This document shows positions 2,711-24,972 of a stretch of 64,000 bases of DNA, piece after piece. Below the pieces are notes generated by a model. It worked only from the letters and a program-made list of their open reading frames with translations, ran no database searches and was not told the DNA's origin. The position numbers and the translations under genes are program-made. Source of the DNA: Fistulifera solaris (lineage: Eukaryota); contig AP026150.1 of the NCBI GenBank assembly GCA_030295235.1, forward strand, positions 372,001-436,000, read 5' to 3'. Each line of letters begins with the position of its first letter. Positions within the stretch are counted from its first letter, which is position 1.

Positions 2711-5499
2711 TTAAAGTAAGAAATAAGCATGATCGCGTTGTCTAGAGATTTGAGTCTTATTGTATTTGTTAAAAGAAATTTCGCATATACGACAGCCCCA
2801 ATCCATGGAGCTGCTCGCTAACAATAATTTGGTTTGTGCGGTATCTCGAAGTGGTTGCCATGCCAGCTTCGTTACTGTGTCAATGTGACACGCATCGGGT
2901 GGGAATGCCAACACCAGCCGGGGAGGAGTATCGTCTAAAGAGTCTGTCGGAACTTCAAACAGTTCGATTCGTCCGGATTCCAGACCCACGGCTATAACAC
3001 CTCTTCGTTGTCTGTCGTCGTGAACAGGAATGGGTGCAAAGGCCAGCGCCGTCACTGAATCTGGTTTTTGCTGGATCTTAAACGAAGGTGCGAATTGACA
3101 GAGTTCGGTAACTTGCGTGGTCAAGTCCTGTGTATCAATCTTCCATACCTTGATACAACCATCTCGAGAGCCAGAGGTTAATATAGTTTCATCGTAGGGG
3201 CAAAAATCAACCGACCAAATAATGCGTTTATGTGCCGTGTCCTTACTCCAGGATAGCTCAAATAGCTTGCCGGGTGATCCCGTCCTTTCCACAAGCACAA
3301 TCTTCTATCTTTTCCGGAAGACACTAAAAATTGACCATCCGGGGAAAAGGAAAGTGTAGCTACCGTCGATTTATGTCCACCGCTAAGCGTTTGGGCGCAT
3401 TTGCCGGCCTCGACATCCCAAAGACGTACACTAGCTGCTTCGGCATCACGTGCCTTGCACGATGAGGCAACCAAGACATCGCTGAAAAATGACTTCGTTT
3501 TCGGCTCGTACAGAGGACTTGCCGTTCTCGACATAAGTGTCGAGGTGAGACAGAACAGCTCCGTATTGTGCCCGAATAGTTTTCGTGTTTCCGGCCACAA
3601 CGATGCCACTCCTAAATCTCGTTCCAAAGGTAGCTTCACACTCGTCAGACTAAAGGCATCACTCCCCCCTTCACCCTCCATGGCATCGGCTTCTTCCGCC
3701 CGATCGGCGGCACTGGCTTTGTTGCTTAGACCGAGGGAAGGGATAAAAGCCCGATCGACACGTTCGATGTCATCGTCCACTGAGTTGGCCTCTCCGTGAA
3801 TGGTCTGTAGCATACAAAGGGTCGTTCGTGGTGCATCAAATACTCTCAGCTCTTTCTCTTCCGCCCCTGTCACCATCAAGTGCTTGTGTTTTACCGAAGA
3901 AATCGAGGCAATGGAGGTCAAGTTATAACCGTGTACTTGAGGGCGTGCCAACTCCACCCAAATGGAGTCCTTGTCAGATTCTTCGATGGGAGCCCATAAC
4001 CGACAGGTCTGATCGTTACTAACTGTCAATAAATATTCACCTTGCGACGTTTCCCAACAAAGATCCGTGATGCCACCAAAATGCCCAGTGATACAAGGTG
4101 TTGCTTTCCACCGGACAAAGGAGGCACGTTCTTCCAGCGGTAACGAATTCAATTCTTCTTCCTGTTGTTGTGAAATCAATTCGCTGGTCCAAATGTGAAG
4201 GCTTCCTCCATACGCTTGTCCCACCAAGTAGCGTCCATTGGAAGGATTAATCGTAGCACCACAATATCCGAGCAGTGATGAACCTACCGACCCACCTAAA
4301 ATTCCTCCGGCACTTCCCACTCGTGTCAAAGGCGTCCAAATACCTTCCAATGTGGGACCCCACAGCATAATCGCCCGATCCATACTACTGCTAATCAGTA
4401 GCTTATCGTAACCGTACATCGGTTGTGGATTTGTATGCCATTTGACACAAGTCACGCTTTCCTCGTGCCCGACTAACAGCGCCTCTAACGTGACTTTGGT
4501 CACATGTTGCACCAAGTTATTGCTATTCTGCGACGCATTCGGTACGGCGAATTCGATGCGCGATTCTCCTTCTTCATCCTCTTCCACGCCATCTTTATTT
4601 CCTTCACTCAGATCATCATCCGGATCCTCCATATCGTCAGGTACAGTATCGTCTAGCACGCTCGTCACCTTTTCCGTATACGTTCGAAACATCCATAATC
4701 GAATGCGAGCATCCTGACTCGCGGACGCCAGCAACGAATATTCGGTAGAGTGCCACCAATCCATACTCGTAATCCAGTCTTCATGTCCCGATAATGTACC
4801 CACTAAATGCGGAGTCGTCCCGTCTAGACGATACACCCATATTTTGTTGTGTCGAGGATTGGCGGTTCCGATCAAGGCCAAGAGGGATGAATGATGCTGC
4901 TGAAAGGAACACGAGCACACGGCCGAATCCAGCAAAGATACGGTGTCTTGGACCACAATTGTCAAAGAATTGGTGCTAATATGACAAGTGTAGAGGGTTG
5001 CACCCGCAGATGTTCCCGCTAGCACAAAGAGCGTTTCTGTGTTGTTGTTGCCCTCGGCAGTATTAGGATGAACCGTGGGACAAATGGAACCAATCGATCG
5101 ACTCGCCGTCGACAAAACGTGCTCCTTCCACAAAAGTGATTCCGATCGAATCCATACAGCGATCGTTCCGTTAGAGAATCCGCACGCAATTCCATTTCTA
5201 CCGAACACACTCATGGCCGATATCACCGGCCGTTGATCACCCGGAAGAACCGGATTCTGTTCGACAAAAGACGACCGTAATGTCTGCCGCACCGTCCATA
5301 CCGGCTCTTCCTTTTTCCACAAGCGTCGTTCCGCTAAATAAATGAGAGCATTTGATGCGTAAACGAGGGTATCGTTGCCATTGTCGTTTCCTCGAATCCA
5401 GTCAACGGCGTGACGAAAAGACGATGCGGCAGCTCCTTGATGAACGGTGTGAAAGGACGGTGAGTGCGTGCTATTTTCTGGCCCTGAAATTTCTGCCAT
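2711..5499 (-). CDS. ELP2: Elongator complex protein 2 (WD40), one apparent frameshift near 3280
   Basis: GHEDWI, LASASQD..IRLW, ELARPQVHGY, LWPE..KLFGH and AHKRIIWS motifs; ORFs 3178..5499 and 2711..3298 overlap in different frames. Confidence 0.92.
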
Positions 5500-5988: not shown

Positions 5989-6780
5989 ATGAAACAACAT
6001 AAACGTTCTAAAAAGCAGAACAAGCGCGTCAAAGCAGCCAGCACGACGAGACTAGCTCCGGTTGTTGAAGAGGAAGTCACTGCTACTTTGTCGCTGTCAG
6101 ACGAGCAGCTTACATCGCCATTCCCTCTCTCGTCGTCTTCCACTCTTTCTAACATTGATACTCATCTTACAACTAGCACTATGAGCGAAGTACGGTCGGT
6201 AGAAGGCACGTCATCCGTGTCCGCACAACCATCTCGGCCGCCACTGCAAAACATCGCACCGAATCAGAACCATCGGACGACTGTTTCGAATGCGCACGCA
6301 ACATCTTCTGTAATTCAGAAGCGCTCCGTTCTTTCCCCAGTAAATACAAAAAATACCGCTCCTCCCACGGTGGCAGAGACAGCCACACCACCCGAAGATC
6401 CTCCGGCCGACAAAGTCATTACAACGACGCAGCCTACGCTCGAAATCGTCCTCGGCAAAGTCGTGGAAATTGTCACCGAAGCAGAAAGAAATCAGACCGA
6501 CTTGGAAATTGAACGATTGCAACAACTGGTGGACTTTCTGAACTCCTCGAAAAGTTCAGATACGACGGAATGGTCGTTGACGCATACGGAACTACAACAA
6601 ATGGTGTTGCGCGTCGTCCTGTTGGCGAAAGAATCGGTGCGTCGGGGGACACCGCCACCCACGGGCATGATGGTGTGGCAACAGCCAGACAAAACAACCG
6701 TGAATCTAGCGTGGGCTCCGCCGCACCATGTGCAAATTACCACCGATGGTGTTGTACTGGGAGAACGTCTTTGCATCTAG
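5989..6780 (+). CDS. Hypothetical protein (basic N-terminus, Ser/Thr-rich)
   Basis: 263-aa ATG-initiated ORF, no recognisable domain. Confidence 0.55.
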   Translation: MKQHKRSKKQNKRVKAASTTRLAPVVEEEVTATLSLSDEQLTSPFPLSSSSTLSNIDTHLTTSTMSEVRSVEGTSSVSAQPSRPPLQNIAPNQNHRTTVSNAHATSSVIQKRSVLSPVNTKNTAPPTVAETATPPEDPPADKVITTTQPTLEIVLGKVVEIVTEAERNQTDLEIERLQQLVDFLNSSKSSDTTEWSLTHTELQQMVLRVVLLAKESVRRGTPPPTGMMVWQQPDKTTVNLAWAPPHHVQITTDGVVLGERLCI

Positions 6781-7053: not shown

Positions 7054-7701
7054 TTACAGGAACAAAAAGCGAGCCATGGCTCCTCCCGCACTTTGCAAAT
7101 ATGCCGGACTCGTGTCCGCTAAATGTTCCACGTGCAACAATTGTGCTCCATGTTTCAAATACAATTGCGATTCCATCGCGTGTGGCAAAAACAATTCCGC
7201 GAGTTGTTTCCACGCTTCCGCACCATCCCGAAACGTCCCTTGTCCTACCACCGAATGTCCCGGTCGAGGGATGCCCGTGGCAATGGCGTACGCGGCTTGT
7301 TTCGAAATATCGTCCACATCGAGAGACAGTGTCTCCCAATGTTGTGTCACCCAAGCCGATAATCCATACAAAGCACACACGGCTTGTACTTGTTCTCCTT
7401 GGGCCGAACAATCATCGAGAGCACGTTCGACCAAAGGTCCAGCGACATTTTGTAACGTCCATTCGTCGATCGCTGTGTCTTCCGGTGGTGGCGGCTGCTG
7501 CAATAATTTCGCACCAAACATGATATTCCGATGGGCCCGCAGTGATGCCAAAGCATATTGTCGATCTTTCGTACCGGTGGGTAATAGCAAATATTCACGC
7601 GATGTATATTCGTCTCCGATCCGGAGGACCTGCGTGGCGAACGAACGACGACGACGACAACAACACGAGCGAATGCTACGCCGCATCATAACGGCCCACA
7701 T
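7054..7701 (-). CDS. Hypothetical protein with Arg-rich mitochondrial-type presequence
   Basis: 215-aa ORF, N-terminus MWAVMMRRSIRS...RRRRSFAT followed by globular-looking sequence. Confidence 0.6.
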   Translation of the reverse strand: MWAVMMRRSIRSCCCRRRRSFATQVLRIGDEYTSREYLLLPTGTKDRQYALASLRAHRNIMFGAKLLQQPPPPEDTAIDEWTLQNVAGPLVERALDDCSAQGEQVQAVCALYGLSAWVTQHWETLSLDVDDISKQAAYAIATGIPRPGHSVVGQGTFRDGAEAWKQLAELFLPHAMESQLYLKHGAQLLHVEHLADTSPAYLQSAGGAMARFLFL

Positions 7702-8311: not shown

Positions 8312-11170
8312 TTAATACAAATCCACCCGGCCCGACGAGAACACACGTCGATGAGCGTGTTTCGCTTTGCCCGGGTGCGACGGCGAACGCAATTGTTCCA
8401 ACGCGGGTTCGTACTCAAACAATAAGTTGTTTTTCTCTAAATGTCGAATTTGCTCCACGTCAGCTTTGAGAATGGCTTCATCGTGATGCATCAGGATGAC
8501 GCTACCAATTCCGGTAAACAAATCAATGGTGTAATCCACTTTGGTGCCCGGCTTGACACCCGTCTCTAGGTACACAAAGGAGGGTAGTGTACGAATCGTG
8601 TCGAATCCGGGTGTGGATTTGACAATGCCGCGGGCATACGAAACCAGAATGACTTCTTGGCCGGCAGCCTTGAAAGGACTCGGCGGTATACTGGGCAAGG
8701 TCAAAAACGCTTGCTTGTCCAAATAGGCATCGACGGAGGAATCCACCTGAGAATGGCCTCCCGTTAATGCGCGACACAAAGGTCGCCAATTGCCATCGCC
8801 ACCATGTGCACGGCAGTTCATCTCCACCAGACACGGACCATCAGGGGTCATCATGACTTCACCATGCGATGGACCATTTTTGAATTCCAGAGCATCCAAC
8901 ACTTTCCGAACGTAAGGAATCAGAATCTTTGCTTCGGGAGAATCCGAGGGTACTGGGATCATTCCAAAGTAAACAAAAGCAGCTCCATTGGTCTCACGTT
9001 TGTCGTAAACCCACACCATGGATGTTTTGTGCACACCGTCGCGAGAAACGTGATCCACGACGTATTCTTTCCCTCGAAGAAATTCCTGGCAAAGAACAGC
9101 AGGACAATCGCCACCGTTCACCAGCTGTGATTTCATTAACACATCAAAATGCTCTTTTGCTTCGTTGAAATCGTGACATAGCTTGACACCATCTGAACCA
9201 GCACTCTCAGTAGGCTTCAATACTACTGGATAGCTCTCGGTGCGTAAAAAGTGTTCCACTTCAGCAAACGTTGTACCGGCCGCTTGACGAATCGATCGCA
9301 TGCCCTTGGCCGCAATCAGTTCTTGCTGAATCTTCTTGTCTCGGCGATTCGGGATACCGGTACCATTCGAACGCACATTCATCCGCTCCGACAACTGATC
9401 CGCCAAATCGACACCAGCCTCCCCACCAGCAATGCATGCGACAACGCGAAGAGTTCCCGCTGCCTTGATGACCAATTTTTCCGTATCGGCTAACCCTGTT
9501 TTCGGTTCCGTGACTTCGGCATGATACGTCAAGGATGTGCAGCTCAACGGAATGTGCTTCTTCATTTCTTCTGAAAAGCCATCGGTCCACAGTGCGATCA
9601 CTTTGTATCCCCGTTTGAAGATTTCTTCCGCCACCAAACAACCAGTGGAGTACGGGTCTACCACGACAACCACTTCCTTCGAGGCATCCACGGTCGTCAT
9701 ACGTCGTATCAGTCCACCACGAAGCTCCGGACGATCATTGGACATGTGGCGTACTAAATTCGGACCATCGGAAGAAAAGGGGTATTGAATGATCTTGGGT
9801 TCCAAGATACTTGGCATGACGTACGAGTCACCGCGAGGCCGTTTGAGCGCTTCGAGACGTGTTTCGTAGGTAAAGAAGCCATTAATTTCCTCCAAGTAAC
9901 GAATAAAATCCACATCTTTCTGTAATACCTGAGGGTCTTCATGCATCAGAATAGCACTACCGATTCCTGTCACTAGATCCGTCGTGTAGTCTACATACGA
10001 GCCTTCTTTGATACCCGTCTCCAGATATACAAAGGACGGCAAGCATCGAATCACATCGTATCCGGGAGTGCCTTTAACTTTTCCTTTCGAGTACGAGACC
10101 AGAATAATTTCTTGTCCAGCAGCTTTGAACGGACTCGGAGGTCGTTCCGGATACCGATGGAAAGCTTCTTCATCGAGAAGGGCGTCGACAGCCCCTTCGA
10201 CCTGCGAGAATCCTCCCGTCAAAGCACGACAGAGAGGCCGCCAGTTCCCATCCCCGCCATGCGCACGACAGTTCATTTCCACCAAGCATGGACCATCTGC
10301 TGTCATCATGACTTCTCCATGAGAAGCTCCATTTTTGAACTCGAGTGCGTCCAAAACAGTTCGAACATAGGGGATCAAAATTCTGGCTTCCTCGGATTCG
10401 CTATCCACGGGCAACATACCAAAATAGACAAAGGCGGATCCATTCGCTTGCCGTTTGTCGTACACCCACACCATGGTCGTCTTATGAACGCCATCACGTG
10501 AGACATGATCAACTACATACTCCTTTCCCCGCAAGAATTCTTGACACAGTACGGCTGGACACTCTCCTCCATTGACCAACTGCGATTGCATCAATGTATG
10601 AAAATGCTCCACCGCTTCTTCGTATGTATGGCACAGCTTGACTCCATCTGACCCAGCCGATTCGGTCGGTTTCAAAACAATCGGATATGGCTCGGTGCGC
10701 AAGAATTCTTCCACTTGACTCAATTCGTCTCCGGCCGCTTGACGCACCGATCGCAAACCCGCCGCCTTGGCCAATTCTTGTTGAATTTTCTTGTCACGAC
10801 GATTCGGAATGGCCGTCCCGTTGGTGCGAACACCGAGTGCTTCCGACAAAGCGTCCGCCAGGTCGACTCCGGCTTCTCCTCCCGCCAAGCATCCCACAAT
10901 GGGCAATCCAGTGTGCAAGACAGCTTCTTTGGTTTGTTCGTGTGTGGCTTTTTCTTCCAACACATAATCGTACGTCAATTTCCCACACGATATGGGAACA
11001 TGAGCTTTCATTTCTTCCGAGAATCCTTTCGTCCAGAGGCAAATAAGTCGATATCCTCGACGAAGGATTTCTTGGGCGACGAGACATCCTGTCGAATATG
11101 GATCGACAATTACGACGGCTTGTGGGTCCTCTAATTGCGTCATGCCGCTTTCCATTGACTGAGGAGGCAT
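8312..11170 (-). CDS. Double ATP-grasp domain protein (L-amino-acid ligase / NikS-DdaF-BacD-like), copy A
   Basis: Two internal repeats each with VIVDPYSTG, RRDK, VLKPTESAGSDGV, QEFLRGKEYVVD and HGEV...LVEMNCR ATP-grasp signatures; likely start MPPQS at 11170. Confidence 0.88.
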   Translation of the reverse strand: MPPQSMESGMTQLEDPQAVVIVDPYSTGCLVAQEILRRGYRLICLWTKGFSEEMKAHVPISCGKLTYDYVLEEKATHEQTKEAVLHTGLPIVGCLAGGEAGVDLADALSEALGVRTNGTAIPNRRDKKIQQELAKAAGLRSVRQAAGDELSQVEEFLRTEPYPIVLKPTESAGSDGVKLCHTYEEAVEHFHTLMQSQLVNGGECPAVLCQEFLRGKEYVVDHVSRDGVHKTTMVWVYDKRQANGSAFVYFGMLPVDSESEEARILIPYVRTVLDALEFKNGASHGEVMMTADGPCLVEMNCRAHGGDGNWRPLCRALTGGFSQVEGAVDALLDEEAFHRYPERPPSPFKAAGQEIILVSYSKGKVKGTPGYDVIRCLPSFVYLETGIKEGSYVDYTTDLVTGIGSAILMHEDPQVLQKDVDFIRYLEEINGFFTYETRLEALKRPRGDSYVMPSILEPKIIQYPFSSDGPNLVRHMSNDRPELRGGLIRRMTTVDASKEVVVVVDPYSTGCLVAEEIFKRGYKVIALWTDGFSEEMKKHIPLSCTSLTYHAEVTEPKTGLADTEKLVIKAAGTLRVVACIAGGEAGVDLADQLSERMNVRSNGTGIPNRRDKKIQQELIAAKGMRSIRQAAGTTFAEVEHFLRTESYPVVLKPTESAGSDGVKLCHDFNEAKEHFDVLMKSQLVNGGDCPAVLCQEFLRGKEYVVDHVSRDGVHKTSMVWVYDKRETNGAAFVYFGMIPVPSDSPEAKILIPYVRKVLDALEFKNGPSHGEVMMTPDGPCLVEMNCRAHGGDGNWRPLCRALTGGHSQVDSSVDAYLDKQAFLTLPSIPPSPFKAAGQEVILVSYARGIVKSTPGFDTIRTLPSFVYLETGVKPGTKVDYTIDLFTGIGSVILMHHDEAILKADVEQIRHLEKNNLLFEYEPALEQLRSPSHPGKAKHAHRRVFSSGRVDLY

Positions 11171-11767
11171 ATTAGTTGTTACTTTTCTAAGAAAATATTG
11201 ATTAGCTTCTAAAATAGACTTTTCCAGCGAGAAAGAAAGAAATGCATTAAAGCGAACAACCGACAGAGATGCCAAAAAAAAAAGATTTGCGGGTTTTCTT
11301 CTTATACGTGTGTATTTCGGGGAACATTTTCACTGGCCGACGTGTGACTCCGAATGTAAGATTCGGTACTGATCACTATGGATATTGGTGAGGACAACTT
11401 GTCGTACCGAACATGTCACCACCACTCATTAGCAGCTGGTGAAAGTTCAACGATTGCCGCAGACGGAACGGATGGCAGGCGATGGAAGAAAAAGTGACGG
11501 AAAAAGTTCGGCACTTGTGCCACAGGCCCAATCTGCAAGTGCAAGAATGATTTCGAAGGAAGGTGTGACGTGAAGAAGGCTCCCTCGCTACCAGTACGTA
11601 GAGATATGAATCGTGAACTAAACTGTTTGCTCGGTCTATTCGGAAATAGCTAAGGTTAGCTATAGGACACAAGCACACGTAGCTCGTCTAGTCTGCAAAA
11701 GATGAAGACTCACTTCAAAATTCTTCAGAAAAGCTATCTTAATATTACTGTCCCGGCAACCTTAGCT

Positions 11768-14582
11768 TCAATACAAATCGATACGGCTAGCGGAAAAGTA
11801 GCATTGGTGGTTATGTTCGTCCCTCTTTTTGTGACCCAAGCTTTCTAGGGGATCCTCGTATTCAAACAGCATATCATCCTTTTCCAATTGTCGAACTTTA
11901 TCGGCATCTTGTCTTAAGATAGCATCATCGCGATGCATTAAAATGACACTGCCAATACTGGTGACCAGATCGACCGTGTAATCCACCTTGGTGCCCGGCT
12001 TGACACCTGTTTCCAGATACACGAACGATGGTAGCTTACGAATGATATCAAATCCGGGTGTCGACTTGACCACGCCACGCGTGTATGAAACCAGAATAAC
12101 TTCTTCGCCCGAAGCTTTGAACGGACTGGGAGGAATATCCCGTAACGCAGAGAATGCGGCTCCGTCCAGATACGAATCCACGGCCACTTCCACTTGCGAG
12201 TATCCGCCCGTGAGCGCCCGTGCGAGAGGACGCCAGTTGCCGTCGCCCCCGCGAGCCCGGCAATTCATTTCAACCAAGCATGGGCCATCCGGCGTCATCA
12301 TTACCTCACCATGAGAGGGACCATTCTTCAGACCCAGTGCATCCAGAACTTTGCGAACATATGGGATCAATATCTTTGCTTCGGGAGATTCTGAGTCCAC
12401 AGCATAGCAGCCATAATAGACAAAGGCAGCACCATTCGCTGGTCGCTTGTCATAGACCCACACCATGGTTGTCTTGTGGACGCCATTACGCGAAACGTGG
12501 TCAATGACATACTCCTTTCCACGCAGAAACTCTTGGCACAAGACTGCTGGGCACTGACCACCGTTCACCATCTGTGAGCGCATCAATAAATCAAAATGAT
12601 CCTTGGCCTCGTTAAAATTGTGACAAAGTTTTACACCGTCCGACCCGGCACTTTCCGTAGGTTTCAAAACGACAGGATAGCTCTCGGTGCGCAAAAAGTG
12701 CTCCACTTCGGCGAATGTTGTACCCGCTGCTTGACGAACTGATCGTAAACCACTGGATGCAATCAATTCTTGCTGGATCTTCTTGTCTCGTCGGTTGGGA
12801 ATTTCGGTTCCGTTGGTTCGCAACTGCAAACGTTCAGAAAGTTTATCAGCGAGATCCACACCCGCCTCACCTCCAGCAAGACAGGCAACTACGCGAAGAG
12901 CTCCCGCTGCCATCAATACAAGTTTCTGTGTGTCTCCCAGTCCTGTTGTCGGCTCCGTTACCTCGGCATGATACACAAGAGACGTACAGCTCAAAGGAAT
13001 ATGTTTCTTCATCTCTTCAGAAAACCCATCGGTCCACAGTGCGATTACCTTGTATCCGCGTTTGTAGATTTCTTCCGCAATCAAGCACCCCGTGGAATAG
13101 GGGTCCACGACTATAACTGCTTCTCGAGAGGCGTCGATCGTAGTCATCCGACGAATCATGGAACCCATGAGTTCCGGGCGATCATTGGACATGAGACGAA
13201 CCAGATTAGGACCTGATGATGAGAACGGGTACTGCGCAACGCCGGACTCGGACAGAGTTGGTAGCGCGACTGACTCTGTCCGTGGGTGGCTGAGCTGTAC
13301 TGCCACCGACTCGAAAACGAAGATTCCTTTGATTTCTTCCATGTAACGAATAAAGTTGACATCTTTCTCTAAGACAGCTGGGTCTTCATGCATGAGAATA
13401 ACACTGCCGATCCCAGTGACTAAGTCAACCGTGTAATCCACTTCGGATCCAATTTTAATACCTGTCTCGAGATAGACAAATGAAGGCAAACAACGAATCA
13501 TGTCATATCCTGGTGTTGCTTTGACCTTTCCTTTTGCGTAGGAGACCAGGATCACTTCTTGACCGGCTGCTTTGAACGGACTCGGAGGCCGTTCCGGATA
13601 TCGATGAAAGGCTTCTTCATCCAACAATGCATCTGCTGCTCCTTCCACTTGGGAGAAGCCTCCTGTTAAAGCACGACACAGAGGACGCCAATTACCGTCT
13701 CCGCCCCGAGCACGACAATTCATTTCCACCAAACAAGGACCATCGCTAGTAATGATGACTTCACCATGAGATGCACCATTCTTGAGACCCAAAGCATCCA
13801 GCACTTTGCGCACATAAGGGATGAGAATCTTGGCCTCTTCTGACTCACTATCGACCGCATCACAGCCAAAGTAGACAAAGGCAGCCCCATTGGCGGGTCG
13901 TTTGTCGTACACCCACACCATGGTCGTCTTGTGCACACCTTCGCGTGATACATGATCTACCACATACTCGTTGCCTCGTAAGAATTCTTGACACAATACT
14001 GCTGGACATTCTCCACCATTAACCATTTGCGATCGCATCAACGTATGAAAGTGATCCACCGCTTCCTCGTACGTATGACACAATTTTACACCATCCGATC
14101 CGGCCGACTCGGTCGGTTTCACGACGATCGGATAAGGTTCTGTTTTCAAAAAATCATCGACTTCCGCTAGCGTCGTTCCACCCGCTTGACGAACCGATCG
14201 CAAACCGGCTGCCGCAATTAACTCTTGCTGCACTTTCTTGTCGCGTCGATTGGGAATAGCGGTACCATTCGTACGAAGACCGAGTGCTTCCGACAGCGCA
14301 TCCGCCAGGTCGACTCCGGCTTCGCCTCCGGCAATACAGCCAATAATGTTCATACTCGTGTCTAAAACGGCTTGCTTGGTTTTTTCCAAAAGTCTCTTGT
14401 TCGTCAAGGGTATAAGCATAAGTCATGTTCTCACACGACATGGGGACATGTTGTTTCATTTCTTCCGAAAAACCCTTCGTCCAGAGACAAATGATCTCGT
14501 TGCCTCGGCGACTGATTTCTTGTGCGATCAGACATCCTGTCGAGTACGGATCAACAATAATGACAGTCGTTGTACTGTTCAT
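11768..14582 (-). CDS. Double ATP-grasp domain protein, copy B (tandem paralog; apparent frameshift near 14390)
   Basis: ORF 14154..14582 supplies the N-terminus (VIIVDPYSTG) and ORF 11768..14419 the rest; collinear with copy A; break lies in a homopolymer. Confidence 0.87.
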
Positions 14583-16330: not shown

Positions 16331-17679
16331 ATGACAGGCGGCGGCGACTCGACGGCGCACAAATCGTGCAGTCTCACGGAAACCATTATCTTTTGCTGGC
16401 GATTGTCTCCGGAACGGCGTGCTCGATTTGCAGCAAAACGATGATGGAACAACACGCCATCGGCATCGATGGAGATTACGAAAAATTTGAAAAACCTTTA
16501 TTTCAGACATTGGGAATGTTCATTGGGATGATTGCGGGTTTGTTTATGCACGCGATTGTCATGTATTGGAAGATTCCGTTTCCGGGGTATGTCTTTCCGT
16601 CCAGCGCATCGCCGAATGGTGGTGCGGTTCCGACCGAGAAGGATCGTCTTTTGAAGCAGTTGCCGACTCTGGAGCAGCCTGAGACACAGGCGGTACCCGT
16701 CTGGATGTATTTCTTTCTCATCATTCCGGCCATCTTCGATTTAGGGGCCACGGCACTCTGTATGATGGGATTGCGATACTTGGATGTGAGCATCTATCAA
16801 ATGCTGCGCGGTAGTGGCATTATTTTTGTCGCACTCATGAAGCAGCATGTTTTGAAGGACCGACTGTACAATTTTCAATGGCTCGGTGTCTTTTGGAATG
16901 TCGTCAGTGTGCTGTTGGTGGGAGGAACGGCTTTGTTGAATTCTGCGGACGAATCAACATCCAATGTGGACCCCGGCAAAGCCATGCTGGGCCTGGGACT
17001 GGTACTCACGGGAGCATTCGTGCAAGCACTGCAATTTGTGTTTGAAGAAAAGGTAATGACGATGGATGTTCCTTCGCCTCCGTTATTGCTGATCGGAATG
17101 GAAGGTTTGTGGGGGACCCTTCTGTCGTTGTTCGTACTCTACCCGGTTGCCTACTACTTGCCGGGAGATGACCATGGCTCGTACGAAAACCCGTTCAATA
17201 CATGGTACATGCTGGTCAACTCGACAGACCTTCAGATCTGGTTCTTTGTTTACTTCTTCGCCATTTTTGGTTATAATCTCTTTGCTGTCCTAGTCACGTT
17301 CTTGCTCAACAGCGTGTGGCATGCCATTCTGGACAACTTTCGTCCCATTACAGTTTGGGGTACCGATATGTTTATCTTTTATTTCATTTCGGCTCAGTTT
17401 GGAGAGACCTGGACCCCGTATAGTTGGATTCAGTTGGTGGGGATGGCGGTCCTTTTGTACGGAACGGCGATTTACAACGCTCCCAATTCAGGGAGCTTGC
17501 GTTTGGAAGGCGGACCCGAGGGTTGTTGCCTCAATTTTCGTGACGAATACGAAGACATTGAACGGCGATTGGAAGACGAGCGGTTGCATGCCGAATGGCT
17601 CAATCGCAAAATGTCGTTTGCGGAGACACGTCTTACCGGATCGTTCGCTGGAGAGTGGTTGGGGAGCACGCGCTTATAA
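16331..17679 (+). CDS. SLC35F/drug-metabolite (EamA-like) transporter
   Basis: About 10 hydrophobic segments; FEKPLFQTLGMF, SIYQMLRG, QFVFEEK and GMEGLWG motifs; ATG at 16331 joins the ORF if one T is restored near 16392. Confidence 0.85.
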
Positions 17680-17983: not shown

Positions 17984-19151
17984 TCATGTTGCGTCCAAGA
18001 GCACCTTTTGAGCAACTTGTCTTCCAGACAAAATGGCACCATGCACAGACGCAAAGTGCGGTTCGTTTAAGTAAGCACCAGCGAAGTATATCTTGTCATC
18101 GACCGGCTGTAAGATCGTTCCCTGGTGAAATGGCGGAGTATAACCTGCTTCCCACGACTCTTCAATGAACGGTTCCTTTGACCAGTTTTGTACGCGGTGT
18201 TGAATATAATGCTCGCTGGCCTTCCCACGAAAAATGGTGTCGAGCTCATTCATGTGAAACTCAAACAACTCCTCGTCACTCAACTTGATCAGATCACTCG
18301 TTTCTGCGCCCCCAGCTGACAGCATAGTCAGAACGTTCCTTCCAGTTGGCTTTTCGAAAACACCGTCGAAATAGATTCGATAGGAATCAAGGATGGTATA
18401 GTCTTTGTAAAATTGCTCGTCGAATTCAAACCATATTTTGAAACCTTCGTACGGTACCACCTTGTCTATTTCTGTCGTTTTCGCAGTAGGAAGATCCGGC
18501 ACATATTCAATTCTTCCATTTTTTAACATGGTCGGGGGGAACGGCAAGTATTACTTTGTCTGCCTCCAAGGTATCTCCGGCAGCGGTTGTAACTTGTATC
18601 TTAGCGCCCGTGTAATCAATAGTTGTCACAGGTGTATTCAACTGCACACGGTCCTGAACATACGTATGCATATAGTCATTAAGGTAGGATTTCCATGTTG
18701 TGCTTTTGAATTTCCACTCTCGATAGAAAAGCCAGCGTAGCGGCAAAGGCACTTTGACGCGATCACCAAGAACCTGGCGGTATCTTTCGGGTCGATAAAC
18801 GATGGTTTCCTCGGTTACAGTATCATTAAACAATATCATATCTTGCAATATACGCGGGTGCGTATGAATCCACTCGGCCCCTAAATCAAGCGGTATATCG
18901 ATGAAATCATCCATTTCCTGGACTCGTCCACCAATCTCCTCCTTGGCCTCGAGAATTTGATAGTTGCGGAAGCCAAAATATTCCAGTGTGTAGGCAGCCG
19001 AGATTCCCGCTGGTCCTGCACCTATAATGATAATGCTGCCCTCGTAGTCTGTCGAGTCGAGCTCCAAAGGTGGAACCTCACTATATCGGCCATTTTTCCA
19101 GATGAACGCGTCGAAAGTGCACCACAGCACAAGAAGAAAAGGTAAGTACAT
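17984..19151 (-). CDS. Flavin-containing amine oxidase with signal peptide (apparent frameshift near 18540)
   Basis: IIIIGAGPAGISAA FAD motif, EA...IGGR, DLGAEWIH and C-terminal IYFAG...VHGAILSG; start MYLPFLL at 19151. Confidence 0.85.
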
Positions 19152-19761
19152 CAAACAGATGGGTGGCTTACTTAAATCAAGCGATGTCAAATGGATTACT
19201 CCCCAGTATTTTGTATCGTTTTTGTTTAAATCATGACGTTGCCGATCGGCTTGTCGGCATGAGAGTTGCGCTTGTGTTAGCATTGTTCGTTTACGGTCTT
19301 GTGGAAAGTTGGCGGTTGGCGCGCACTTCCTCAATGTCCCTTTTCGTGGTTTTTGAATTTTAAAAATAAGTACGGAGTACTGCGCAAATAGGGCCCGATC
19401 AGCAATGACCTGGTGAGCTTTATTCTCTATAGTAAATCGTCCATTGACAGATTTGCTTTGTCCATTCTGCACATAATTTCTCATTGTCTTTTTTTATGAC
19501 TTTTAGGATTTAAGGATAAAGACACTCCGAACTCCGAAGTATTTTTTTTCTTGTTTTCGTCGGAGAAAACATTCGGCGTCTCGACTGCAATGCATCACAT
19601 TGCAACACTTCTCTTCGAGCGACTTTCAACATTGCACATGCACAGCATTGCACGATAGGTAGGAAAACAAAGCAACGTATCCCCTATAACCGACTCAGAA
19701 CGAAGACGAAATCGGTTGAACTTTCTATTAAAGTTCGCACGAAAACGAAACAGAAGAGCCC

Positions 19762-21247: not shown

Positions 21248-22393
21248 TCATTGTGTTGATGGCACTGCATCCGATGCAGAAGTCGGCGTTTGTGTTGCGA
21301 TGCGCTGCAAAAATTGCAACAACAGCGGATGCACCAATTCTGGTGCTTCATCGTGAGGACAATGTCCGACTCCGTCGAACCCTTCGACCCGCTCGACCGT
21401 CGGCATGCGAGACAGTGCCTCCACACGCGGACCCGGTGTCCACGGATCATCTTTGCCGTAACAGATCCACACGGGTTTTTGGACTTGCTGTAACTGCTGT
21501 TCGGGCAAGGGACCTGCTGAATATGATAACGTATCAAAGACGACCCGACTGGATCCTTCCGTCAACAGCGGATCCAGTAGAACTTGTACCAACGTATCAT
21601 CTACGGCCTCGGTCCGCGCATACGGCTCTTTCAATATTTGTTTGACGGTATCGGGTTTGGCCAAGGCATCAAAGACTGTTTTCCCATACTGTCGCAACAG
21701 CGACTGCACCGTCCGTAAGATGGGCATCACGACACCAGCCAATGGCACTTCCGCGGAATGCAACTCCCGAAAATTAGGACTGACCACAAAGGCCCCGTCA
21801 TACAGTTCTTCGTCGTCGTCGTCAATGAGACACTGCAATGTACTAATGGTCCCAATGGAGTTGCACACTAACGTCACTTTTTCCTTGGGTTGGATCACTT
21901 GCTTCGTAAAGTCAGTCAACAGATCACTCCACGTGAAAAAGTTGTAACAACTTGACACTGGATGACGCAAATCCACATTCGCGATGCGTGTTTCGCCCCT
22001 TGCGGTCCCCAATTCGACATTTTTTATGACAGACGGTGCATCTTTAAAGCGAGCATATTCTCCGCACAAATGGGGTGAATAAGACGGCGGTTTATCCGAA
22101 TATCCCGATCCCAACAAATCAACGGCATACGTGCGATAGCCGCGTTCTCCCAATTCCTTCAATGTTTTGCGCCAGTGATCGCTATTGACAAATAAACCGT
22201 GCACCAGTAGTACAGGTTTTCCTTCCGGTGGACCGGAAACTTGGTACCGTATCTTCGTTTCGGCTTTCCAATCATAAAATTGATTGAGAAGACCCGTGGC
22301 TGGACTGATTTTAGGGGGAGCGGAGAGTCCTTGACTCGTCCAAAGGGGAAAGACGAAAAGTAAAAACACACAAGTGATCCTTTTTATCATCAT
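21248..22393 (-). CDS. Alpha/beta hydrolase, pheophytinase-like family, N-terminal targeting peptide
   Basis: LLVHG, DLLGSGYS, NSIG nucleophile elbow, D.DPW and GHCPHDEAPE motifs. Confidence 0.85.
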   Translation of the reverse strand: MMIKRITCVFLLFVFPLWTSQGLSAPPKISPATGLLNQFYDWKAETKIRYQVSGPPEGKPVLLVHGLFVNSDHWRKTLKELGERGYRTYAVDLLGSGYSDKPPSYSPHLCGEYARFKDAPSVIKNVELGTARGETRIANVDLRHPVSSCYNFFTWSDLLTDFTKQVIQPKEKVTLVCNSIGTISTLQCLIDDDDEELYDGAFVVSPNFRELHSAEVPLAGVVMPILRTVQSLLRQYGKTVFDALAKPDTVKQILKEPYARTEAVDDTLVQVLLDPLLTEGSSRVVFDTLSYSAGPLPEQQLQQVQKPVWICYGKDDPWTPGPRVEALSRMPTVERVEGFDGVGHCPHDEAPELVHPLLLQFLQRIATQTPTSASDAVPSTQ

Positions 22394-23061: not shown

Positions 23062-24972
23062 ATGAGTTTTTGTAGAAATGCTGCGCTTCTGCTTCTCATC
23101 TTGACAATATGCGTCAACGGGGAACGACCATCATCATCTTTACCGCTGAGTCGGCGTTCCCTACAGCAATCTTCACCAAATGATGACTCTTCCTCGACAA
23201 ACGACAAAAGTATTGTATCGAGCTCTTTTTCGAGTGCTTGGCCTCCTTGGCCGTTCAATCTCTTGTCGCCAACGACGACGACGACGACGACACGTAGTAG
23301 CAGCAGTGGCTGGAAGAATCGAGCTTGGCAACAAACACGACAATCACTGAAAGTCGCCGCCCGTCATACCCAACAACTCACCTCTTCACTCTACATGCAC
23401 TTGCCCCCGGCCGCGCATCCTTTTCTGATGATAGCCTGCATTCCACGTCATCAGAAAATACCGCTATTCTCCAATCCGTTGGCGCGATCTATAGGACTGG
23501 CATCCATGGGCATGGCCATTGTCAGTTGGGCGCATTGTGATTGGTATCGACAAAAGTCGTTGGTTCCGTTGCCTTTGGTATATCCAGATGTGCATCGTGC
23601 TATATTGCCGCCGTTCTTGCCCGAAACACCACCACTCGAAGTAAACACGCGCAACAAGGATTCTTCCCCGGACCCGACAACCAATCGCGCTGGGATCGAA
23701 GAAAACCGCAACCAATGGTTACCATTCCGACACAAATGGAGCTCTATTTCCAAGATCCCGTGGCCCTTGAGTCGTCGTTGGCAAACAATGCGCCAAAAAC
23801 GGCACATGCAACGGCTTCAGGAGCGTCGGCGTGTCATCTACGATGAATTGGTCGCATTGCAGACACTCAAGCGACAGCAAACGATGAAACACGAGGATAC
23901 CAAGGAACCGTTGGGATATGCCCTTGTCACGGGAGCCTCCAAAGGCATAGGGCGAGCAATTGCGGTCGAACTGGCTCGATGGGAAATACCCTTGATACTG
24001 GTAGCTCGAAATATTGATCGCTTGATTTCACTGGCCAATGATCTGGAGAATTGTTACGGTGTGAAATGCTGTGTCTTGGAAGCCGACTTGTCCAAGCCAC
24101 ATGTCGCGGAGCGTGTGTACAAAACCACGCAAGAAGCGGGGCTTCGCGTGGATATTCTCGTCAACAATGCCGGTACGGCATCCCATGGAATTATCGTAGA
24201 TCAACCACTAAAGGAAGTCAATCAAATGCTGCAACTCAATGCGGACTCCAGTGCAGTCCTTTCGAACTTGTTTGGTCACGAAATGAAGAAGCGACGGAGA
24301 GGACGCATACTGTTCGTTTCCTCTGTGAGTGGAACTGTGGCCGGTATATCGACCCTGGCGCTCTACTCTGCCACGAAAGCGTTCCAAAACTCACTGGCAG
24401 TAGCTTTGGCAAAAGAGATGGAACCGTGGGGAGTGGGGGTGACATGTCTCATGCCCGGAGCTGTAGAAGATACCGACTTTTCCAAGAATACTGACAACGC
24501 TTTGTGCTGGAAAATACCGTTTTATCCGAAAAAGCCACAGATCATTGCCAAAGTGGGAGTACGTGCCATGCTGCTCGGTGAAACAGAGGTAGTTCCAGGT
24601 TGGCAAAATCGTTTCTTTGTAAAGGTTCTAAAGCCAGCACTTCCTCAAAGACTCCATAATGTCATTGCCGAAACTGCGTGGAATCCTATTCGACCACCTT
24701 TTCAAAACTCGCATCGGCCTGGATTGGATGCTGAAAATCAGAATCACAATAAGTCACCAACTCCGCCCGCGCCCGCACGACCAAGCAATTTAGGTCATTT
24801 CTTCTCTCAACCTGGCCCACAACGACTGCCACGACTATTGCTACTAGGTCCAGAACCCAATGAGATGAATGATGGCGCGAAGGTTGAAGTAGATCCAAGC
24901 GACTTATCACATGATCATTATGATGAGGACGATAGGTCTGAACCAGTCGAAGGAACAAGCGATTTTAAATAG
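23062..24972 (+). CDS. Short-chain dehydrogenase/reductase with signal peptide and long N-terminal extension
   Basis: ALVTGASKGIG, LVNNAG and YSATK catalytic motifs. Confidence 0.88.
   Translation: MSFCRNAALLLLILTICVNGERPSSSLPLSRRSLQQSSPNDDSSSTNDKSIVSSSFSSAWPPWPFNLLSPTTTTTTTRSSSSGWKNRAWQQTRQSLKVAARHTQQLTSSLYMHLPPAAHPFLMIACIPRHQKIPLFSNPLARSIGLASMGMAIVSWAHCDWYRQKSLVPLPLVYPDVHRAILPPFLPETPPLEVNTRNKDSSPDPTTNRAGIEENRNQWLPFRHKWSSISKIPWPLSRRWQTMRQKRHMQRLQERRRVIYDELVALQTLKRQQTMKHEDTKEPLGYALVTGASKGIGRAIAVELARWEIPLILVARNIDRLISLANDLENCYGVKCCVLEADLSKPHVAERVYKTTQEAGLRVDILVNNAGTASHGIIVDQPLKEVNQMLQLNADSSAVLSNLFGHEMKKRRRGRILFVSSVSGTVAGISTLALYSATKAFQNSLAVALAKEMEPWGVGVTCLMPGAVEDTDFSKNTDNALCWKIPFYPKKPQIIAKVGVRAMLLGETEVVPGWQNRFFVKVLKPALPQRLHNVIAETAWNPIRPPFQNSHRPGLDAENQNHNKSPTPPAPARPSNLGHFFSQPGPQRLPRLLLLGPEPNEMNDGAKVEVDPSDLSHDHYDEDDRSEPVEGTSDFK

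Follow-up and report, generated by a model that had tools for sequence, protein, structure and literature searches.

An internally doubled L-amino-acid-ligase-type ATP-grasp protein in Fistulifera solaris and its diatom relatives, with two modules that appear to be equivalent

The L-amino-acid ligases (LALs) known so far are bacterial proteins with a single module that act in the pathways to antibiotics and phytotoxins, and they are sought as biocatalysts for peptide synthesis. Here, we describe two adjacent genes, named A and B, in a stretch of 64,000 nucleotides of the Fistulifera solaris genome (contig AP026150.1, positions 372,001 to 436,000; hereafter the window, to which all of the coordinates refer), in which the same kind of enzyme takes the form of a conserved, internally doubled protein, present in major marine primary producers and in oomycete and dinoflagellate lineages. 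The reading that we favor, with a probability of about 0.6 for the whole of it, is that each chain carries two equivalent LAL-type active sites which perform one and the same ligation in the cytosol, producing a small amide, and that A and B are duplicates that arose within the lineage.

Gene A (8312–11170, minus strand) is a single open reading frame (ORF) of 952 amino acids, with the ATG at 11170 and the stop, included in the interval, at 8312, and contains two LAL-type ATP-grasp modules. Because it is colinear with the homologue P0001 over the whole length (residues 1–952, 98.7% identity), the gene is intronless. The N-module spans amino acids 10–440 (9851–11143, minus strand), which is its hmmsearch envelope, covers profile positions 1–424 of 427 and has all of the motifs; it is followed by a linker (amino acids 441–490; 9701–9850, minus strand), predicted to be disordered and conserved in its second half, and by the C-module (amino acids 491–925, again the hmmsearch envelope; 8396–9700, minus strand). 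Gene B (11768–14582, minus strand; ATG at 14582, stop at 11768) is colinear with P0005, a protein of 937 amino acids, and carries a one-base frameshift at 14388–14391 (minus strand), a TTTT run in the coding strand with one T above the reading of P0005. The frameshift lies within the N-terminal subdomain of the N-module (13301–14582, minus strand), with the VDPYSTG motif on the upstream piece, and in the main ORF the hmmsearch envelope of this module (3–373) covers the profile only from position 60; the C-module (11843–13147, minus strand) corresponds to envelope 425–859 of the main ORF. A tblastn search of the window with one module found these four modules and none further. Every module has a single copy of each of the motifs VDPYSTG, NRRDKK, V[LV]KP, SAGSDGV, CQEF, EYV[VI]D and E[MV]NCRA[HR]GG, and pairwise identity is 66–79% among the four modules, 71–73% between the N- and C-modules within each gene and about 80% between the two proteins.

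The preliminary description of this DNA had reported two adjacent, intronless genes of about 940–950 amino acids, each a fusion of two complete ATP-grasp domains with intact ATP- and metal-binding residues, in a eukaryotic genome. The ORF map agrees on two adjacent genes, both on the minus strand; the two complete domains per gene are borne out by two Pfam stretches per protein and by the motifs, and the catalytic set (Lys, Glu, Glu/Asn, Arg) is present in all four modules. The eukaryotic setting is likewise upheld, in that the flanking genes are eukaryotic (WD40, APC10) and the closest named relatives are diatom proteins. The claim on gene structure stands for gene A, one ORF of 952 amino acids with no intron, and fails for gene B, which is frameshifted and split over two frames.

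Both proteins match, over two stretches each, the Pfam families ATP-grasp_4 (PF13535; 84.4 and 94.2 bits, cut-off 27) and ATP-grasp_3 (PF02655; 76.6 and 77.1 bits, cut-off 23.2), and each has two matches to GARS_A. LAL_C2 (PF18603) is matched by the C-module of gene B with 37.7 bits, above the cut-off of 29.4, and by that of gene A with 29.0 bits, just below it, while the Pfam scan reported no LAL_C2 stretch in the N-modules. All four modules have, without exception, both Lys, the QEF Glu, the E-x-N Glu and Asn and the Arg that follows; across 33 diverse relatives the two Lys, the E-x-N Glu and the Arg are invariant and the QEF Glu is at least 90% conserved. Scores above the Pfam gathering cut-offs, the nucleotide- and Mg-binding residues and the three-domain fold of an AlphaFold2 (AF2) model all place the modules in the ATP-grasp superfamily. 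Within it, the NCBIfam scan of three modules (A-N, A-C and B-C) gave as best model NF005543 (PRK07206.1), with 302.9 bits for A-C, 302.4 for B-C and 282.2 for A-N at a cut-off of 302, and as second best the model NF041595 for the dapdiamide A synthase DdaF, with 156.3, 166.6 and 175.7 bits (E 1e-46 to 1e-52), which do not reach the equivalog cut-off of 840; nor does the equivalog NF053745 for the alanine-anticapsin ligase BacD, at 26.0–40.3 bits, reach its cut-off of 850. No mycosporine (MysC) family was among the NCBIfam matches, it being uncertain that the library holds a MysC model.

The closest solved chain by sequence is 30vh_A ("L-amino acid ligase," 419 amino acids), matched end to end with E = 7e-43, and the chains of BacD and BL00235 come next with E of about 1e-7. 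In the phmmer alignment the E-M-N-C-R-A-H-G of the window lies over E-S-A-A-R-F-A-G of BacD, so that the catalytic Arg matches the Arg of BacD "ESAARFAG," and the Gly of RAHGG is opposite the Ala of the deposited BacD "Trp332Ala" mutant chain. Position Trp332 of BacD presumably limits the size of the first substrate. According to a report on RhiM and RhiC, a conserved Arg positions the first substrate, through its carboxylate, in these two enzymes, and the carboxylate-recognition residues are common to them and BacD (PMC13579937). The earlier suggestion of a resemblance to bacterial LALs is therefore sustained by the 30vh_A match, by DdaF as second-best NCBIfam model and by the fold, which matches BL00235, YwfE/BacD and RizA best.

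No grouping with a characterised primary-metabolism enzyme was found: the models for purD (TIGR00877, 33–42 bits versus 288) and for the large subunit of carbamoyl-phosphate synthetase (CPS; TIGR01369, 18–23 bits versus 1027) score far below their cut-offs. It is well supported, by profile scores and predicted structure, that the modules are LAL-type ATP-grasp ligases of an uncharacterised subfamily, at the edge of PRK07206; they are no equivalogs of a characterised enzyme and, by the same comparisons, not a primary-metabolism ATP-grasp enzyme. Many homologues (P0006, P0014, P0019, P0028 and others) carry the source label "biotin carboxylase" or "acetyl-CoA carboxylase biotin carboxylase." On the curated-model scores these labels are wrong and a mis-annotation, and the "biotin carboxylase" label of the Joint Genome Institute (JGI) is a misnomer because the curated primary-metabolism model scores below cut-off.

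The predicted structures point in the same direction. The AF2 model of the C-terminal half of gene A has a mean predicted local distance difference test score (pLDDT) of 90.9 and a predicted template modeling score (pTM) of 0.89, and its top Foldseek matches are the LALs 3VOT (BL00235 of Bacillus licheniformis), YwfE/BacD and RizA (E 5e-26 to 2e-21), in a ranking drawn from a copy of the Protein Data Bank (PDB) without 30vh_A. Ranks 1–6 are LALs, followed by glycinamide ribonucleotide synthetases, PurK and biotin carboxylases; there are at least 500 PDB matches at E <= 0.001, and all of the matches listed are ATP-grasp enzymes. The N-module of gene A is likewise modeled with pLDDT mostly above 90. 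The full-length model of gene A, built from 57 aligned sequences, has pLDDT 87 and pTM 0.53; both of its modules are well folded, and pLDDT falls below 50 in the linker (residues 438–481 and 483–493). A fixed pseudo-dimer of the two modules was considered from this model and is unsupported at pTM 0.53.

Comparison with known systems places the diatom proteins near bacterial single-module enzymes and sets them apart in architecture. NF005543/PRK07206, a bacterial "hypothetical protein" of about 416 amino acids, matches end to end (profile positions 2–412 of 416) with the same layout as each half, whereas the diatom proteins are eukaryotic fusions of two such modules, of which A-N, at 282 bits, is below the cut-off; no NF005543 member above cut-off was found in 14 well-known control genomes. 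With 30vh_A/30vq, residues 16–439 of the module align to 4–417 of the chain, including the C-terminal LAL-type domain, but 30vh_A is single-module. DdaF, an ATP-grasp amide ligase in a pathway independent of nonribosomal peptide synthetases (NRPS) (PMC12568646), provides the second-best curated family, yet with scores far below its 840-bit equivalog cut-off; it is single-module, bacterial and inside a biosynthetic gene cluster, while the diatom genes have no such cluster around them. BacD/YwfE, BL00235 and RizA/RhiM share with the modules the fold (template modeling score up to 0.79) and the Mg/phosphate and catalytic Arg motif, but in structural alignment BacD/YwfE, BL00235 and RizA are only 12–19% identical to them and are single-module proteins of about 410–475 amino acids; the pocket of BacD is likely to differ, given the Gly of RAHGG at the "Trp332Ala" position. 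The large subunit of CPS is a precedent for an internally duplicated ATP-grasp protein, but it belongs to another family, its model scores far below the cut-off, and its two units perform different steps.

On these grounds, each module would bind Mg-ATP and activate a first substrate by phosphorylating its carboxylate; the amine of a second substrate would then attack the resulting acyl phosphate to give the amide, ADP and Pi, a reaction scheme presumably shared with the bacterial LALs (PMC13579937). The two modules of a protein would catalyze the same or nearly the same ligation, as equivalent sites and not as successive steps. The protein, of about 940–950 amino acids with the modules joined by a linker of about 50 residues, would be cytosolic, since the catalytic fold begins 7–17 residues past the start codon in both proteins and leaves no room for a targeting peptide. 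The product would be a small amide, similar to a dipeptide or an acyl-amino acid, and probably moved across a membrane.

The doubled architecture is general in diatoms. A word-indexed search with the full-length protein returned 368 matches, the best 120 of which are 54–99% identical and nearly all of about 900–1000 amino acids with the same double domain set; their source names include Fistulifera, Seminavis, Attheya, Thalassiosira, Chaetoceros, Nitzschia, Pseudo-nitzschia, Skeletonema and Cylindrotheca, and identity across diatoms is 54–79%. Since several homologues are complete transcripts from culture transcriptomes and the homologues are of this length, the doubled architecture is real at the mRNA level. 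In an exhaustive search of 1.84 billion representatives with one module, 6317 proteins matched with E <= 1e-3, of which 1014 had E <= 1e-30. Among 30 representatives that were looked up, nine bear eukaryote labels and none a bacterial name. The labeled ones comprise single-module relatives from Emiliania (454 amino acids), Chrysochromulina (523) and Durusdinium (435), double-module relatives from Fugacium (888), Aphanomyces (983) and a Euplotes transcriptome (1023), and three further protist transcripts. In a protein atlas, whose neighbors are leads and not alignments, oomycete clusters of about 455 and 1015 amino acids are followed by bacterial, mostly actinomycete, clusters of 412–426 amino acids, one of which is automatically named "Dapdiamide A synthase." The sequence comparisons show that diatoms acquired the doubled protein long ago and have conserved it, and that relatives in other marine protists are doubled too. 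The bacterial origin raised as a possibility in the preliminary description may or may not hold: no bacterial name occurs among the 30 representatives, and the module tree is unrooted.

Two loci of distant relatives are recorded here for their gene organization. At L027 (9989–12360) a distant eukaryotic relative with 32% identity adjoins CDC48, photolyase and EML-type WD40 genes; it is apparently divided between two overlapping ORFs, as would be expected from an intron or a frameshift in that record. At L035 (41–2770), a bacterial-looking metagenome contig, two adjacent, unfused ATP-grasp_4 genes (473 and 422 amino acids) are 28% identical to the diatom modules. The distant representative P0293, used as query against genome contigs, gave one irrelevant match of 24 residues.

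The relation between the two modules was followed in two trees. From the fetched proteins, 454 modules were carved and reduced to 154 at 72% identity for FastTree, and 60 chosen rows of these were used for a better-modeled IQ-TREE analysis. In the former, the diatom modules form one clade (support 99, 69 rows), with most of the diatom N-modules grouped inside it (support 98, 32 rows) and the haptophyte single-module forms just outside. In the latter, the diatom clade, of 11 N- and 11 C-modules, has support 98 and the N/C split within it is weak (82). The N- and C-modules are sisters in five of the seven non-diatom doubled proteins (P0314, 98; the Fugacium protein P0252, 98; the Aphanomyces protein P0241, 95; the Euplotes transcriptome protein P0249, 94; P0247, 91), the relation being without resolution in P0240 and P0255; also in Attheya the N- and C-modules are sisters (98), and those of Skeletonema and Thalassiosira sp. 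are grouped (98). At the level of residues, among 117 diatom proteins, 148 of the 435 columns have one residue common to both module types at a conservation of 90% or more, and not one of the 435 columns discriminates N from C at a conservation of at least 85% in each type; at 60% there are only two, with the conservative swaps L/V and Y/F. Either the module was doubled many times independently or two copies have been kept alike by conversion, and both readings say that the two halves have not been allowed to diverge.

Gene A and gene B, for their part, are old duplicates. Their synonymous sites are saturated (pS, the proportion of synonymous differences, 0.74), nonsynonymous divergence dN is 0.14, and the nonsynonymous to synonymous ratio omega is 0.045 over 872 codons, with 0.17 over the 58 codons upstream of the break in gene B. 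The IQ-TREE analysis places A and B as sisters in the N-module (support 100) as well as in the C-module (99), and when 117 full-length proteins are used, a single clade with support 100 unites A and P0001 with B, P0005 and P0006. Saturated pS, the low omega and the single clade therefore show a duplication that is old, though later than the doubling of the module, specific to the Fistulifera lineage and followed by strong purifying selection on both copies; the break in B is recent or spurious. Recent gene conversion between A and B was ruled out, as sliding nucleotide identity ranges over 0.57–0.82 and no near-identical tract exists. In the active-site loop, the residue two positions after the catalytic Arg is His in both modules of A and Arg in both modules of B. 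Of the 117 proteins, 90 have HH in the two modules, 9 have RR, 5 have RN and 13 have other states, and no fewer than three changes on the tree are required to account for RR; co-variation of this residue between modules is not significant in these proteins (six independent contrasts, sign test p about 0.25), and we regard it as a lead, not a finding.

The preliminary description had inferred from the four amide-forming modules an NRPS-independent system, similar to an assembly line, for a di- or oligopeptide or an amide. On this model the modules would each perform a step of their own toward an oligopeptide, as in a secondary-metabolite cluster. Four catalytically complete modules stand indeed side by side, A and B differ at the loop residue, the bacterial contig L035 has its two ATP-grasp genes adjacent and separate, and pathways with two successive LALs exist in bacteria, as reported for RhiM/RhiC (PMC13579937) and MboC/MboD (PMC13725569). 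Against four distinct steps, no column splits N from C at 85% conservation in 117 proteins, the two modules of one protein are sisters in five other lineages, and single-module forms exist. Nor does the second gene behave as a conserved partner: it is a lineage-specific duplicate in the trees, broken in the window, and two long diatom-like metagenome loci, L005 and L016, have the doubled protein (61–62% identical) in one copy within 10 kb either side. As for a lineage-restricted secondary-metabolite cluster, 54–79% identity across diatoms and a dN/dS of about 0.05 resemble core metabolism, and the neighbors in these two loci (L005: GPCR-like, radical SAM, EDR2_C; L016: FIST, IGPS, fasciclin) differ from those in the window. 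A conserved gene neighborhood was in fact sought and rejected, as neither locus shares any neighbor with the window. The assembly-line proposal is thus unsupported, and we consider it very improbable.

Equivalent sites are also what one would expect if the modules worked iteratively, adding the same residue repeatedly, with the doubling raising processivity; the product would then be a homo-oligomer or a poly-amino acid and might, for instance, store nitrogen. The Gly of RAHGG opposite the Ala of the BacD "Trp332Ala" chain, at a position that we take to limit substrate size, would fit such a mode. RhiC is reported to extend a preformed peptide at its N-terminus, one residue after another (PMC13579937). 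For the present family, in contrast, no polymer is known and there is no direct evidence of iteration. Characterised LALs, moreover, mostly stop at dipeptides, as is partly apparent from structure titles. Iterative action is therefore improbable, and two equivalent sites that each complete one ligation remain the preferred reading.

The linker between the modules raises a further alternative, namely that the target is a protein or another macromolecule, as for RimK-like or tubulin-ligase-like enzymes, or that one module is a non-catalytic, regulatory copy. Although predicted to be disordered, the linker is conserved and has basic-x-x-Ser/Thr patterns, and the relative P0338 bears a FYVE domain, both of which would suit a macromolecular target; the RimK Pfam matches, on the other hand, are sub-threshold (16.6–17.5 bits versus 21), the best relatives in sequence and fold are ligases of free amino acids, and every catalytic residue is kept in both modules. 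Both versions are highly improbable. In 51 diatom-like sequences the linker shows the pattern S..GP.L.R.MS.DRPEL......RMTT.D.S.E with a conservation of 80% or more, and the segment may serve for docking or phosphorylation. In the window, its conserved second half lies at 9671–9784 (minus strand; amino acids 463–500 of gene A) and reads FSSDGP.L.RHMSNDRPEL......RMTT.DAS.E; at their C-termini both proteins have a further, shorter version of it, FSS...L.

The frameshift in gene B deserves separate consideration. The first 64 codons (14582–14391) are in one frame and the remainder (14389–11768) in another. P0005 is the NCBI entry "hypothetical protein FisN_18Lh175 [Fistulifera solaris]" and matches the main ORF at 99.4% identity and the upstream piece at 98.5%; over the break it reads ...DEQETLEKTKQ..., which needs one T fewer than the TTTT at 14388–14391. 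Only one public run, X1, holds most of the stretch (0.81 of sampled words), and its contigs cover the break at a depth of 13–15 with no indel listed there; X1 is perhaps the source of the window itself, and its agreement at this site is then not independent. The same contigs list, relative to the window, a one-base deletion at 11274 and a G inserted after 14754, and clusters of substitutions between public-run contigs and the window occur at 9092–9128, 10253–10400, 12905–13046 and 13718–13865. These differences look like a second allele or homeologue, which fits the existence of two near-identical named proteins, P0005 and P0006 (96.5% identity). A genuine, very recent pseudogene or null allele of the strain or haplotype, with no sequencing error involved, is a real, if tentative, possibility: the contigs span the break without an indel, although they do list indels elsewhere, and a homopolymer error would be less expected in a stretch of only four T. 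Weighing on the other side are the doubtful independence of X1, the reading through the break by both P0005 and its counterpart P0006, the long-term constraint on gene B both upstream and downstream of the break, and the fact that minor variants are dropped by contigs. Two explanations thus stand for the break: a lesion that is very recent or peculiar to one haplotype, or an error that the X1 data set has as well.

Hints on function come from relatives. Among 15 relatives of odd length, P0276 and P0300 combine a major facilitator superfamily (MFS) transporter with an ATP-grasp module, one carries a 2OG-Fe(II) oxygenase and P0338 the FYVE domain mentioned above; the MFS fusions, if real, fit a small molecule moved across a membrane, and a further hint in this direction is the EamA/nucleotide-sugar-transporter-like gene divergent from gene B. 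The doubled Fugacium protein P0252 is Skav221360 ("ATP-grasp fold"), which is reported as the notable down-regulated gene with glycerol-3-phosphate as sole phosphorus source (PMC6517890), so that this homologue is expressed and nutrient-responsive. A role as Pro-Pro ligase for the diproline pheromone of Seminavis was considered and dropped, as the family is far wider than Seminavis and nothing links the two.

Several points weigh against the reading of two equivalent, amide-forming sites in a lineage-specific pair of proteins. The His/Arg difference separates A from B at the active-site loop in both modules; the N-module clade of the FastTree analysis (support 98) implies that some of the N/C divergence is old, making subtle differences in specificity possible; the two weakly discriminating columns (L/V, Y/F) exist; and the sister position of N- and C-modules could reflect gene conversion rather than functional equivalence. 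With a pTM of 0.53 the predicted mutual position of the modules is not fixed, so that the model offers no structural rationale for the doubling. As regards transport, the transporter-like neighbor of gene B is absent from L005 and L016, and the MFS fusions could be merged gene models. No RNA run containing this locus was present among the public sequencing runs searched, no substrate or product is known for any family member, and the only close solved relative is 30vh_A, for which, as for 30vq, the literature search found no paper; nor did that search find a description of this ligase family.

The level of conservation is that of core metabolism. Identification of the product would add a metabolite and a pathway to the biochemistry of plankton and would explain the recurrent doubling of the module, and the family would offer a set of eukaryotic ligases for screening; for genome annotation, the biotin-carboxylase labels need to be corrected. 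In a wider and doubtful scenario, put forward as one joint claim, diatoms, dinoflagellates, oomycetes, haptophytes and ciliates would have in common a cytosolic, NRPS-independent route, so far unrecognised, that leads to a small amide or dipeptide (an osmolyte, a compound of nitrogen or phosphorus status or an exported signal), the LAL module having been repeatedly doubled, or kept doubled and homogenised, and the B copy of Fistulifera, with His replaced by Arg at both sites, making a second product.

As for the surroundings, the intergenic spacer (11171–11767) that separates gene B, at its stop, from the ATG of gene A has as its sole ORF of at least 100 amino acids the one at 11376–11678 (minus strand). 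Divergent from gene B lies a 437-amino-acid multi-pass membrane protein (16366–17679, plus strand) similar to EamA/nucleotide-sugar transporters, with weak matches below the Pfam cut-offs. Past this transporter, between 17984 and 24972, small-molecule enzymes occur in a run, and their cooperation with the ligases is without support: a flavin amine-oxidase-like ORF (18507–19484, minus strand), perhaps continued in 17984–18547, an alpha/beta hydrolase (21248–22393, minus strand) and a short-chain dehydrogenase with an N-terminal extension of 280 amino acids (23062–24972, plus strand). Beyond the 3' end of gene A are two ORFs with no Pfam match, at 5989–6780 (plus strand; 263 amino acids, rich in Ser, Thr and Pro) and at 7054–7701 (minus strand; 215 amino acids), and then the WD40 protein (3178–5499) and APC10 (1813–2691). 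The GC content of the window is even throughout, at 0.42–0.50.

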